DNA of 64,000 bases from Negativicutes bacterium (lineage in GTDB: Bacteria; Bacillota; JAAYKD01): contig JAJFTT010000004.1 in the NCBI GenBank assembly GCA_021372785.1, positions 19,891 through 83,890 on the forward strand, in the 5' to 3' direction. This document shows positions 56,692 through 61,226 of the stretch, piece after piece. The first letter of the stretch is position 1. Each line of letters opens with the position of its first letter. The notes below the pieces were generated by a model that saw nothing but the letters and a program-made list of their open reading frames with translations, was not told the DNA's origin and did no database searches. The translations under genes and the position numbers were made by a program.

Positions 56692-57702
56692 TTAATAACT
56701 GATCGCCTTTTGGGGACATTTGTCGACACAGAGACCGCAGGCGATGCATTTATCCGGATCAATCCGGTATTTTTGTTTCAATTCTCCCGTTATAGCCCCC
56801 ACCGGACAAATGCGGGCGCAGAGAGAACAACCGTTACAGGCTTCGCCAATAATCGGCTTATCGTGTTTTTTATATTCTTCGATCACAAGCGCGTGGGTGG
56901 GGCATTTACTGACACACAAACCGCAGCTGCGGCATTTACTGTAATCGATCACGGCGATATTGCGCAATTTGCGAGGATTGGCTTTCTGCCATGTTTCGTC
57001 ATTGACATCTTTGATTACCTTGATGGCGCCAAAAGGGCAGGTCTTTTCACAAATACCGCAGCCGATACAGCCGGTATTACAGTTTGTTTTGCGTACCGCT
57101 ACGCCGGTATCCATCGAAGAACAATTGACATGAACAGCGGCAGTTTTCGGCACCGTCATGATCAATTGTTTGGGACATTCTTTGATGCATAAACCACAAT
57201 TTTGGCATTTCTCTTCATCAATGAAGGGAACACCGTCACTGCTCATCTGAATCGCATCAAAAGGACAAACCCGCACACAATCGCCATACCGCAGGCAGCC
57301 GTAGGCGCAGGATTCCACACCACCGCCGACCAGATTGGCTGCCCGACAGGAAGGAATACCCTGATAATCCGCTCTTTGAGTGCAGCCGCCGCTGCACATG
57401 ACGCAAGCGACCTTCACTTCGCTGCTGGGCGTGACACTCGTCCCCATCAGCTCGCTGATTTTAGCGGCCACGGCCGTGCCGCCCACGGGACAGGCATTGA
57501 CCGGCGCCTCTCCTTTGGCGATGGCGGCCGCCAATGCGGCACAACCGGGCCAGCCGCAGGCGCCACAATTGGCACCCGGCAACACACCTTGAATGGCTTC
57601 TACCTTGGGATCTACTTCCACTGCAAATTGAGTGCTGGCATAGGCGAGCAGACAGCCAAAGGCTGCGCCCAAAGCACCGAGAGATAGAATACTGGACAGC
57701 AT
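56692..57702 (-). CDS. rnfB: Rnf complex subunit B (long polyferredoxin form)
   Basis: TM anchor, [14 protein letters not shown] and several CxxCxxCxxxCP motifs. Confidence 0.95.
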
Positions 57703-57715
57703 GGAACAACCCCCT

Positions 57716-58306
57716 CTACAATGTTAATAGATCCTGGAATAAGCCCTGGAAGCCATAAAACGAGATGGCCATCAGACCTGTTATGATAAGAGAAATGGGA
57801 AATCCCTGCAGTGATTCCGGGATGCTGGAAAAAATCAATTTTTCCCGCACCCCAGCCATCAGAGTAATCGCCAGGAAATACCCCAGAGCATAGGCAAATC
57901 CGCTGACCATGGCGTAGAAGAAATTATAATCCTGCTGAACATTCAAAACGGCGCAGCCCAATACAGCGCAATTGGTGGTGATCAAAGGCAGGTAAACACC
58001 CAAAGCCCGATACAGCGTGGGACTGACTTTTTTGATGACCATTTCCACGAATTGCACCAGAGCGGCAATTACCAGGATAAAGGTAACCGTCTGCATATAA
58101 CCGATATTGAACACGTTGAGAATATAATGCTGCACCAGCCAGGTCACGGCGCTGGCTGCCGTCATGACAAAGGTAACCGCGATGCCCATGCCCACTGCGG
58201 TGTCTACCTGATCCGAGCAGCCAAGGAAGGAACAAATGCCCAAGAATTTGACAAAAATGTAATTATTGATCAAAATACCGGATATCAGTAATGAAACAAT
58301 CCCCAT
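57716..58306 (-). CDS. rnfA: Rnf complex subunit A
   Basis: FLGICSFLG and [12 protein letters not shown] motifs. Confidence 0.95.
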
Positions 58307-58320
58307 TTGATTCCCCTCCT

Positions 58321-58926
58321 CTACGCCGCTTTTCTGCGATTGGTAATTAATTTAATGATGCCAAGGATCATACCCAAAGTTAAAAATGCGCCGGGGGCCT
58401 GCACCATCACCTTGGCGGCCGGGAAATTCGCGCCCAAAAGATCGACGCCAAAGAAAGAACCGTTGCCCAGCAACTCACGAACAGCCGCAACGATGATCAG
58501 GGCCAGCATATAACCTAGGCCCATACCGAAACCATCACAGGCAGAAACGAGGACGCCATTCTTATAGGCAAAACTCTCCGCTCTGGCTAAAATGATACAG
58601 TTAACCACGATCAAAGGGATAAAGATACCGAGCGTGGCATGCATGGCAGGCATATAGGCTTTCATGAAAAGATCTACCACAGTCACCAATGTAGCGATAA
58701 TGATAACAAAACTGGGAATGCGGATTTTATCCGGAATCACTTTGCGCATCATGGATATAACGATGTTGGAAAAAGTCAGGACGAAGATGACCATCAATCC
58801 CATCCAGACAGCGTTATCCACCGCTGTCGTTACAGCCAACGCAGGGCAGGTGCCCAAAACCATACGGAATAATGGATTCTCACCGAAAATACCATTGTTG
58901 ATTGCGTTCCAATACTTATTTTTCAT
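58321..58926 (-). CDS. rnfE: Rnf complex subunit E
   Basis: ENP...LGTCPALAVT, IRIP and PLIVVNCIILARAE motifs. Confidence 0.95.
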   Translation of the reverse strand: MKNKYWNAINNGIFGENPLFRMVLGTCPALAVTTAVDNAVWMGLMVIFVLTFSNIVISMMRKVIPDKIRIPSFVIIIATLVTVVDLFMKAYMPAMHATLGIFIPLIVVNCIILARAESFAYKNGVLVSACDGFGMGLGYMLALIIVAAVRELLGNGSFFGVDLLGANFPAAKVMVQAPGAFLTLGMILGIIKLITNRRKAA

Positions 58927-59873
58927 TTCTTCTTTGCCACCTCCCCAAACTTCTTTGGCGTTGTGAATTTCTCAATCAAAGGAGCAGCAATATTCATCAA
59001 TAAAATGGAGAAGGAGGCGCCTTCGGGATAAGACCCCCAAAGACGGATCAGCATAGTGATCAGACCGCAGCCGAAGCCGTAAATCCAGCGTCCGCGCACC
59101 GTAGCGGGAGAAGATACATAATCTGTCGCCATAAAGATCGAACCCAACATCACACCGCCTGCCAGTAGATAAAATAAACCGGAATCAAAGCCATTCTCCC
59201 CAAAAATACTGCCGAAAAGAAAGACGGTTGCCAGATAGGCCAAGGGAATTCGGTAATCAATGACTTCTTTATAAATCAGAAAAATGCCGCCTAAAAGCAA
59301 GGCCAAAGCCGAGGTTTCACCAATACAGCCGCCGATATTGCCGATAAACATATTCCAATAAGTCGGCAGCGCTGCCGTAGCGGAAAGACCTGATTTCATG
59401 ATGGCCAGCGGCGTTGCCGTGGCGAGACCGTCAAAAGGGGTCGTCCAGCTTGTCATGCTCGCCGGCCAGGCCGACAGCATCATGGCGCGTGCCGCCAGAG
59501 CGGGATTCATAAAATTATGTCCCAAACCGCCAAACGCCTGTTTGACGACCGCAATGGCAAAAGCGGCGCCAACCGGTCCGATCCAAAGAGGAGCCGCCAC
59601 CGGGAGATTCATGCCCAGCAGCAAACCGGTGAGAATCGCAGAACCGTCGCGGATGGTGATTGGCTTATGCACCAATTTCTCTACCAGTGCTTCCGTCAGC
59701 ATAGCAAAGAGGATGCTGAGCAGCAGATGCACGAGAGCACGAAGACCAAAGAAAAAGACACCTGCTGCCGCAGCCGGAACCAAAGCGAAAATCACGTAAT
59801 ACATGATTTTCTGCGTGTTCAAGGGCGAACGAATATGAGGTGCAGACTGTATGACTAATTTTGTTTGTTCCAT
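58923..59873 (-). CDS. rnfD: Rnf complex subunit D
   Basis: SAPHIR, FGGLGHNFMNPA, DGLATATPL (FMN-Thr), GCIGETS and ATDYVSSP motifs. Confidence 0.95.
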   Translation of the reverse strand: MEQTKLVIQSAPHIRSPLNTQKIMYYVIFALVPAAAAGVFFFGLRALVHLLLSILFAMLTEALVEKLVHKPITIRDGSAILTGLLLGMNLPVAAPLWIGPVGAAFAIAVVKQAFGGLGHNFMNPALAARAMMLSAWPASMTSWTTPFDGLATATPLAIMKSGLSATAALPTYWNMFIGNIGGCIGETSALALLLGGIFLIYKEVIDYRIPLAYLATVFLFGSIFGENGFDSGLFYLLAGGVMLGSIFMATDYVSSPATVRGRWIYGFGCGLITMLIRLWGSYPEGASFSILLMNIAAPLIEKFTTPKKFGEVAKKK

Positions 59874-59894
59874 TTCTATTTCGCTCCTTCCGCC

Positions 59895-61226
59895 CTATTT
59901 TTTATCCGCAGCGCGTTTGGCTGTCACATAACCCTTGCCGACCCGCATATAATGCAATAAAGGCAATTTAGCAGGGCAAACATAGGCACAGGCACCGCAT
60001 TCACGGCAATCTAAAATGTTGTACTTTTCAAGCCCGGTCGTATTGCCGGCCGCGGCGTATTTTGCCAGATAAAGCGGCATCAGGCGATAGGCGCAAGCCC
60101 CGATACAGCTGCCGCAGTGGATGCAGTCTGTCATCGGAGCGGGTTGGACTTCCTTTTTGCTCAGTACCAGAATGCCGGTGTTCTGCTTCGTGAAGGGAAT
60201 TTCCGTGCTGAATTGCGGCAGTCCGGTCAGCGGCCCACCCATGATTACGCTGCCCGGCTCTTCCGCATAACCGCCGGCCGCTTCAATTAAGTCGCTGACC
60301 ATACAGCCGACACGCGCCATGAAATTACCCGGTTTTTTGACGGCTCCGGTAACGGTAACCGAACGTTCAATCAACGGCATGCCCGTTTCCATTAAGCGTC
60401 CGACCGCCCAGGCGGTACCGATATTGCAGACCACAATGCCAACATCCAGAGGCAGACCGCCCGAGGGGACCTCGCGGCCGGTAATCGCATAGATCAGCTG
60501 CCGTTCTTCCCCTTGAGGATATTTGGAAACCAGCGGTACCACATCGATCCCTTTCTCCATCAAGACGGCTTTATGCAGTTCTTCGATAGCGCCTTCCATG
60601 GTGATTTTGACACCGATATAGGCATGGCCGGCGCCGGTAGCCTTCAGCAGGGCTTTGATTCCGTCCAGAATCACCGCTGACTGTTCCAGGATGATACGAT
60701 GATCACAGGTTAGATAAGGTTCACATTCGACCCCGTTGATGACCAACATCTCGATCTTTTTTCCCGCCGGTGCGGTCAACTTGGCAGCGGTGGGGAATCC
60801 GGCGCCGCCCATGCCGACAATACCGGCTTCGCGTATCAGACTGCGGATCTCCAGATCGGTCAGCTCTGCCAGGGCTTTGCCCGAACCGATCGGTTCTGCT
60901 TTATTGTCCAGACCATCATTGGCAATGGTAATTGCATTGACAGTTTTCCCATTGGAAAAATTGACCGGACCGATCGCAACCACTTTGCCGGAAACACTGG
61001 AATGAACCGGCGCGCTGATGGCAGCCGGGTGATCCCCGATTTTTTGCCCCATCAGCACCGCATCCCCCACTTTCACCAAAGGTTGACAGGGTGCGCCGAT
61101 GTGCTGCTGCAGCGCAATCACAACCTGTTTGGGAGCAGGCAGCGTGAACAAAGGCATCTGGGATGTCAGTTTGTTTGCCGGAGGATGAATACCGCCTTTA
61201 AATGTCTTTAAGCGCATAAAAGTCAC
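59895..61226 (-). CDS. rnfC: Rnf complex subunit C
   Basis: FKGGIHP, GIVGMGGAGFPT, NGVECEPY and two 4Fe-4S motifs. Confidence 0.95.
   Translation of the reverse strand: MTFMRLKTFKGGIHPPANKLTSQMPLFTLPAPKQVVIALQQHIGAPCQPLVKVGDAVLMGQKIGDHPAAISAPVHSSVSGKVVAIGPVNFSNGKTVNAITIANDGLDNKAEPIGSGKALAELTDLEIRSLIREAGIVGMGGAGFPTAAKLTAPAGKKIEMLVINGVECEPYLTCDHRIILEQSAVILDGIKALLKATGAGHAYIGVKITMEGAIEELHKAVLMEKGIDVVPLVSKYPQGEERQLIYAITGREVPSGGLPLDVGIVVCNIGTAWAVGRLMETGMPLIERSVTVTGAVKKPGNFMARVGCMVSDLIEAAGGYAEEPGSVIMGGPLTGLPQFSTEIPFTKQNTGILVLSKKEVQPAPMTDCIHCGSCIGACAYRLMPLYLAKYAAAGNTTGLEKYNILDCRECGACAYVCPAKLPLLHYMRVGKGYVTAKRAADKK

Follow-up and report, generated by a model that had tools for sequence, protein, structure and literature searches.

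The locus described here raises the question of whether its host builds an Rnf complex, the ion-translocating ferredoxin:NAD+ oxidoreductase of the membrane, with one subunit less than usual. It lies in a stretch of 64,000 nucleotides (nt) from a Negativicutes bacterium (hereafter, the window), which is part of a 2.1-Mb draft genome assembled in 74 contigs, with an estimated completeness of 97.5% and an estimated contamination of 1%; the habitat of the source organism is wastewater or sludge. On the minus strand of the window, the list of open reading frames (ORFs) gives five close-packed genes in the order rnfC-D-E-A-B, with no rnfG among them. The initial annotation, which was based on the window alone, had recorded this order correctly and had suggested that rnfG was relocated, that another carrier took its place, or that the locus encodes a five-subunit or uncoupled Rnf. 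We consider it very probable that the organism possesses an ordinary six-subunit Rnf, in which five subunits are encoded by the linked genes of the window and RnfG by a lone gene located on another contig (C44; G, C, L and f numbers are our own labels for genomes, contigs, loci and families). This interpretation is based on the gene content, on the motifs, on the homology and fold of the unlinked protein, on its uniqueness in the genome and on the conservation of the split layout in related bacteria.

Concerning the operon itself, the 4-bp overlap of rnfD and rnfE leaves no space at their junction for rnfG or any remnant, and indeed neither was found between them, as the initial annotation had stated; the remaining intergenic gaps of the operon measure 21, 14 and 13 nt. 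All five linked genes pass the NCBIfam cut-offs (bits/cut-off: rnfC 485/246, rnfD 343/207, rnfE 224/213, rnfA 255/229, rnfB 151/69), with rnfB scoring slightly under the cut-off of a further model, NF005503 (248 bits, cut-off 252). RnfD, RnfE and RnfA align over their full length with chains of the solved complexes of Clostridium tetanomorphum and Acetobacterium woodii (E=3.7e-104 for RnfD with 7ZC6_D of C. tetanomorphum). The residues A151-T-A-T154 of RnfD (DGLATAT) are aligned with the TTAT (DGVTTAT) of the solved C. tetanomorphum protein, and the flavinylated threonine, T154, is therefore kept. The same holds for the cysteine pairs of RnfE and RnfA (Table 1), and CxxCxxCxxxC motifs occur twice in RnfC and five times in RnfB. 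Thus, the scores, alignments and motifs bear out the earlier view that these subunits are intact, and neither their conserved Cys and Thr residues nor the NADH site were found to be lost.

These data also bear on the idea of a decaying or repurposed Rnf derivative, akin to stripped-down Rnf-type operons. Rnf-derived clusters with divergent E- and A-like genes and without rnfG do exist in the phylum (loci L042 and L046, described below); however, all the cofactor motifs of the window operon are intact, every subunit is full-length in comparison with the solved Rnf chains, and the proteins share 93-96% identity with those of the sister species. Moreover, three metatranscriptomes contain RNA contigs that exactly match parts of rnfB, rnfA, rnfE, the rnfD-rnfC junction and rnfC, so that the operon is transcribed. 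On this basis, a derivative of this kind appears highly improbable.

The search for FMN_bind domains throughout the genome revealed a single match, on contig C44, scoring 70 bits against a cut-off of 22. No FMN_bind gene is thus present in the window, in agreement with the initial annotation, which had noticed no FMN-binding protein near the operon. The protein encoded on C44 has the architecture of an RnfG, that is, an N-terminal membrane helix followed by one FMN_bind domain with the [S/T]GA[S/T] motif at the flavinylated position. It matches positions 2-186 of the 187 of the RnfG model TIGR01947 (83.3 bits), and its four top NCBIfam matches are all RnfG models, the NqrC model TIGR01938 being much weaker (28 bits). 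Its top sequence match in the PDB is the RnfG of C. tetanomorphum (7ZC6_G, E=3e-19, residues 7-170), whose flavin-attachment site, TGAT, is aligned with S149-G-A-S152. The AlphaFold2 model (predicted local distance difference test score, pLDDT, 76.7) consists of a long N-terminal helix (2-48) and a beta-sheet domain; when it was compared with the PDB by Foldseek, the top five matches were RnfG chains of solved Rnf complexes, with query TM-scores (TMq) between 0.68 and 0.79 (0.73 for 7ZC6_G, 0.79 for 9ERI_G), followed by NqrC. Across families, the unlinked proteins are as conserved in their membrane helix as in the flavin domain, a pattern that, judging from the sequences, would fit packing into a complex better than the role of a simple anchor. 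The whole-genome search also revealed only one copy of rnfD, the one in the window, and no second rnf or nqr locus.

The C44 gene is flanked by an S9 peptidase gene running in the opposite direction and by a converging S8 subtilase gene, and hence forms a single-gene unit. No partner genes for another flavin-based system adjoin it, its neighbors being the S9 and S8 peptidase genes and pyrE/pyrF. A free-standing FMN_bind carrier (a lipoprotein or secreted protein of the PplA type or multi-flavinylated, encoded next to its own partner for membrane electron transfer) was also considered for the C44 protein and was rejected, given its RnfG-like helix anchor and the lack of such partner genes next to it.

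Table 1. Position and main properties of the rnf genes of the window, of the adjacent membrane-protein gene and of the unlinked RnfG-type gene
Feature	Position	Strand	Properties	Basis
rnfC	59895..61226	-	443 amino acids (aa); NADH/FMN-binding subunit; two 4Fe-4S motifs (C368.., C407..)	TIGR01945
rnfD	58923..59873	-	316 aa; membrane subunit; predicted covalent-FMN T154 (codon 59412-59414) in DGLATATPL	TIGR01946
rnfE	58321..58926	-	201 aa; Cys27 and Cys110 kept	TIGR01948, alignment to 9ERI_E
rnfA	57716..58306	-	196 aa; Cys25 and Cys113 kept	TIGR01943, alignment to 9ERI_A
rnfB	56692..57702	-	336 aa; N-terminal membrane helix, CGACGWPGC cluster domain, five ferredoxin-type 4Fe-4S motifs	TIGR01944
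rnfD stop/rnfE start overlap	58923..58926	-	ATGA (+ strand tcat); site of rnfG in canonical operons	
SPOR-domain membrane protein	61621..62544	-	upstream of rnfC; context, not an Rnf subunit	Pfam SPOR
Unlinked RnfG-type gene	G000:C44:11521-12048 (= L003:9522-10049)		175 aa	FMN_bind, TIGR01947, PDB, fold

Some observations weigh against the assignment of the C44 protein to the Rnf of the window. Its score is under the curated TIGR01947 cut-off of 102, and the name given by NCBI to a relative sharing 79% identity with it is only "FMN-binding protein". Its predicted flavin acceptor is a Ser, the usual one being Thr. The presence in the genome of a flavin transferase (see below) would be explained by RnfD alone. 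Finally, no RNA contig was found for the unlinked gene in the three metatranscriptomes, which do cover its neighbors and parts of the rnf operon; these datasets are small and their contigs sparse and patchy, so that this absence speaks neither for nor against its expression. Together with the operon lacking rnfG and with the position of the gene as a single unit among peptidase genes, the low score and the missing RNA contigs might be taken in favor of a true five-subunit Rnf, in which electrons would pass from RnfA/E to RnfD without the G shuttle, or in an uncoupled manner, the C44 protein having some other extracytosolic redox or cell-surface task. However, this is the only FMN_bind gene of the genome, it has the full architecture of RnfG, RnfG chains are the closest to it in both sequence and fold, and no genes of another flavin system accompany it. 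Furthermore, as detailed below, RnfG-like genes accompany rnfD almost without exception in the sampled genomes of the phylum, where the high-scoring unlinked type never occurs without Rnf. We therefore regard a five-subunit complex as improbable, and the earlier proposal of an Rnf lacking RnfG is not supported, an rnfG being present elsewhere in the genome, one of the two findings that the initial annotation had itself named as refuting that proposal.

The same genome-wide analysis revealed one ApbE flavin transferase (276 bits, 354 aa), which carries a lipoprotein signal and is therefore expected to act at the outer face of the membrane. Next after the apbE gene (G000:C69; L004:837-2466) comes a member of the Hpre_diP_synt_I family (PF07456). 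If the six-subunit interpretation is correct, the window operon would provide RnfC, D, E, A and B, and the C44 locus would provide RnfG, with its helix, its FMN_bind domain and its S149-G-A-S152 motif. As suggested by the sequences, the ApbE lipoprotein might attach FMN covalently to Ser152 of RnfG and to Thr154 of RnfD on the outer membrane face. RnfG would then join the RnfCDEAB proteins and, by analogy with the solved complexes, would carry electrons between the iron-sulfur centre of RnfA/E and the flavin of RnfD in an active Rnf.

As far as the surroundings of the operon are concerned, the position of the SPOR-domain gene upstream of rnfC is kept across the family, as revealed by tblastn in the relatives. 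Between the two genes, 70 nt upstream of rnfC, an ORF of 102 aa (window 61296-61604, minus strand) has no Pfam match; it shares 80% identity with its counterpart in the sister species, and no counterpart was found in other genera. A single contig from metatranscriptome run X6 departs from the window sequence where rnfC ends (window 59886-59897), with a C>G change at 59886 and an inserted T at 59897, and probably represents a strain variant.

The genome being a draft of 74 contigs with an estimated 1% of contamination, one might imagine that the contig carrying rnfG derives from another organism, or that the gene was lost from the operon at a misassembly. Such an artefact is, in our opinion, almost inconceivable. 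Indeed, in a genome of the same genus, G001 (OY762825.2, labelled "MAG: Bacillota bacterium", that is, a metagenome-assembled genome, MAG), a single 2.9-Mb contig carries both rnfD and the RnfG-like gene, at a distance of 2.1 Mb and with unchanged neighbors, which excludes an artefact of binning. Its operon likewise has the order C-D-E-A-B, the encoded proteins being 93-96% identical to those of the window and the unlinked protein 89% identical. In addition, both loci are represented, at comparable depth, by exact DNA contigs from one wastewater run, and the overlap of 4 bp between rnfD and rnfE is clean and was found again in the relatives.

The split layout is not limited to this genus. Three further species of the same family, belonging to two genera, and the family f2 of the same order share the C-D-E-A-B order, and the RnfG-like gene, where found, is on another contig; in family f3, also of this order, the operon is the canonical C-D-G-E-A-B. 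Synteny at the unlinked gene is maintained within the family and includes the S8 subtilase, homoserine dehydrogenase, pyrE/pyrF and the S9 peptidase. To extend the analysis to the phylum, 401 genomes were searched for rnfD and with a profile built from the unlinked proteins, the best 150 matches of each search being retained. Among the best 150 rnfD loci, 72 have an adjacent RnfG gene, 30 have an RnfG-like gene listed only at a distance (about 25 of which proved genuine on inspection), and 48 could not be classified. By means of tblastn, 27 operons of the C-D-E-A-B type, in which rnfE follows rnfD without an intervening gene, were verified, distributed over about ten families of Bacillota (f1, f2, f22, f40, f44, f68, f84, f99, f117 and f133); in f22 and f40, all the sampled genomes with a listed rnfD locus have the split layout. 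Five-gene operons with a distant rnfG are thus common in the lineage of the window organism and also occur in several other families, which is the second of the findings named by the initial annotation as refuting an Rnf without RnfG.

An RnfG-like gene was found in 207 of the 208 rnfD-bearing genomes among the 401 sampled. All the profile matches above 170 bits fall in rnfD-bearing genomes, and the ten genomes with a profile match and without rnfD show weak matches only. The lone exception among the 208, G338 (family f135, 100% complete), has no RnfG-like match at E<=1e-10 and would be a better candidate than the window for a truly G-less Rnf.

The survey also provided some observations on other loci. 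In two genera of f40 (L041:4437-5291 and L059:4056-4604), the unlinked rnfG directly adjoins a cluster for an mrp/mnh-type cation/proton antiporter, and in f22, f84 and f133 it lies near the housekeeping genes holB/yaaT/rsmI. Two clusters (L042:3548-7098, in G025:C2, and L046:12-2844, in G008) contain rnfC-rnfD and, after them, strongly divergent genes resembling rnfE and rnfA (27-38% identity), without rnfG and, in L042, also without an adjacent rnfB; they may be repurposed Rnf derivatives. Lastly, two stand-alone rnfC-rnfD pairs lacking E, A and G (L043:2804-5200, in G018:C63, and L045:588-2840, in G050:C13) each adjoin a small ferredoxin-like gene.

Some of the unlinked proteins have more than one flavin domain. 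In the sister genera (L009:4414-5739, L011:3914-5257 and L013:4364-5704), the unlinked RnfG is 441-447 aa long and consists of a membrane helix and three tandem FMN_bind domains, with the motif SGAS, AGAS or AGAT in each domain and ASAS in one copy. With the RnfG profile, domains 2 and 3 reach 112-141 bits and, from their sequences, look like internal duplications of RnfG's own domain. Two or three FMN_bind domains are also present in unlinked RnfG proteins of families f22, f40 and f68, and one domain in those of the window's genus and of family f2.

A further question concerns the origin of the split. The unlinked genes group together in a tree built from 53 RnfG domains (six changes versus 18 with shuffled labels), even though not cleanly in one clade, and those of the own family and of f2 form one supported clade (97/81). 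In the approximately unbiased (AU) test, a clade uniting the unlinked genes of the own order with the rnfG genes that lie within operons in that order was rejected (p=0.002). The grouping of all unlinked rnfG genes in one clade was not rejected (p=0.31), and tree and test together neither demonstrate nor refute it. In the tree constructed with RnfD, RnfE and RnfA, the operons without rnfG do not form one clade, at least five changes are required, and intermediate stages are found in family f68; the existence of one ancestral operon for all the rnfG-less operons was rejected for this reason. Lastly, three genomes have an in-operon rnfG together with an unlinked copy, that is, G007, of the same order (L064:1892-3028), G088 (L066:713-1822) and G343 (L074:4249-4779); in two of them the unlinked second copy has three domains. 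These genomes look like an intermediate stage ahead of the loss of the in-operon copy, and G294, which has the unlinked copy only, is sister to G088 in the RnfDEA tree.

Because of the AU tests, of the changes required by the RnfDEA tree and of the genomes with both copies, we are inclined to think that the in-operon rnfG was at first accompanied by an unlinked paralogue, which later took its place, a course of events that the sequences make somewhat likelier than a simple move. According to the latter, the original in-operon rnfG would have moved to its new locus in the ancestor of the family, without any paralogue. This would fit the supported clade formed by the unlinked genes of the own family and f2, and the synteny of the unlinked locus within the family; however, it has to face the rejected grouping with the in-operon rnfG of the same order while a clade of all unlinked genes is not rejected, the existence of genomes with both copies in the same order, and the scattered rnfG-less operons with their intermediates in f68. 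Two points weigh against displacement: the deep branches of the RnfG tree are weak, which leaves room for a move, and the groups submitted to the AU test were picked after the tree had been seen. On balance, a simple move appears possible and rather doubtful. The earlier suggestion that rnfG was relocated is thus correct insofar as a full-length RnfG-type gene exists on C44; this gene may nevertheless be an ancient unlinked paralogue by which the in-operon copy was replaced. On a broader scale, chances are about even that the unlinked rnfG genes represent an old paralogous subfamily that repeatedly displaced the in-operon gene in Bacillota, often in two- or three-flavin forms.

The comparison with known systems places the window complex in the Rnf family. 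It shares with the clostridial Rnf encoded by rnfCDGEAB (C. tetanomorphum, 7ZC6; A. woodii, 9ERI) the same full-length C, D, E, A and B subunits with their cofactor motifs, and the C44 protein shares the membrane helix, the FMN_bind fold and the flavin-attachment position of RnfG. Unlike in Clostridia, rnfG is not located between rnfD and rnfE but represents a single-gene unit on another contig, and the predicted flavin acceptor is a Ser (SGAS) in place of the Thr. The window complex is a member of the Rnf family that differs in gene order alone, its RnfG being a divergent subtype. The NqrC subunit of Na+-NQR is homologous, membrane-anchored and provided with an FMN_bind domain and a covalent flavin, and is the next-best fold match of the C44 protein, whose score on the NqrC model is nevertheless much weaker; besides the one rnfD-type locus, the genome has no Nqr genes.

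Multi-flavinylated RnfG proteins have been described in RNF gene clusters by Meheust et al. 2021 (PMC8238504). They resemble the unlinked proteins with three FMN_bind domains of the sister genera and those with two or three of f22, f40 and f68, but are found inside rnf clusters, whereas the protein of the window genome is unlinked and has one domain. In that work, an RNF system was defined by an RnfB within five genes of an FMN_bind gene, a definition that leaves split systems out of the count. Five rnf genes without G, as in the window, have been listed without comment as 'rnfCDEAB' in Limnochordia isolates (PMC11456536) and in a DTU015 MAG (PMC10215811), that is, in Bacillota-type genomes; in neither paper is the missing G mentioned or an unlinked copy sought. 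Our literature search found no paper having the unlinked rnfG as its topic.

The main value of these findings is that they reveal an annotation pitfall. The unlinked rnfG genes of the own family, that of G006 and the first domains of the multi-domain forms all score under the curated RnfG cut-off, which is why a close relative of the C44 protein bears a generic name at NCBI; as a consequence, the Rnf of several families of Bacillota appears to be one subunit short, and gene-cluster surveys that require linkage would overlook split Rnf systems. The split layout does not change the view of how Rnf works. The repeated replacement of an in-operon subunit by an unlinked and often multi-flavin paralogue, if it occurred as we are inclined to think, would represent a small and clear case of the displacement of a subunit gene in a respiratory complex.

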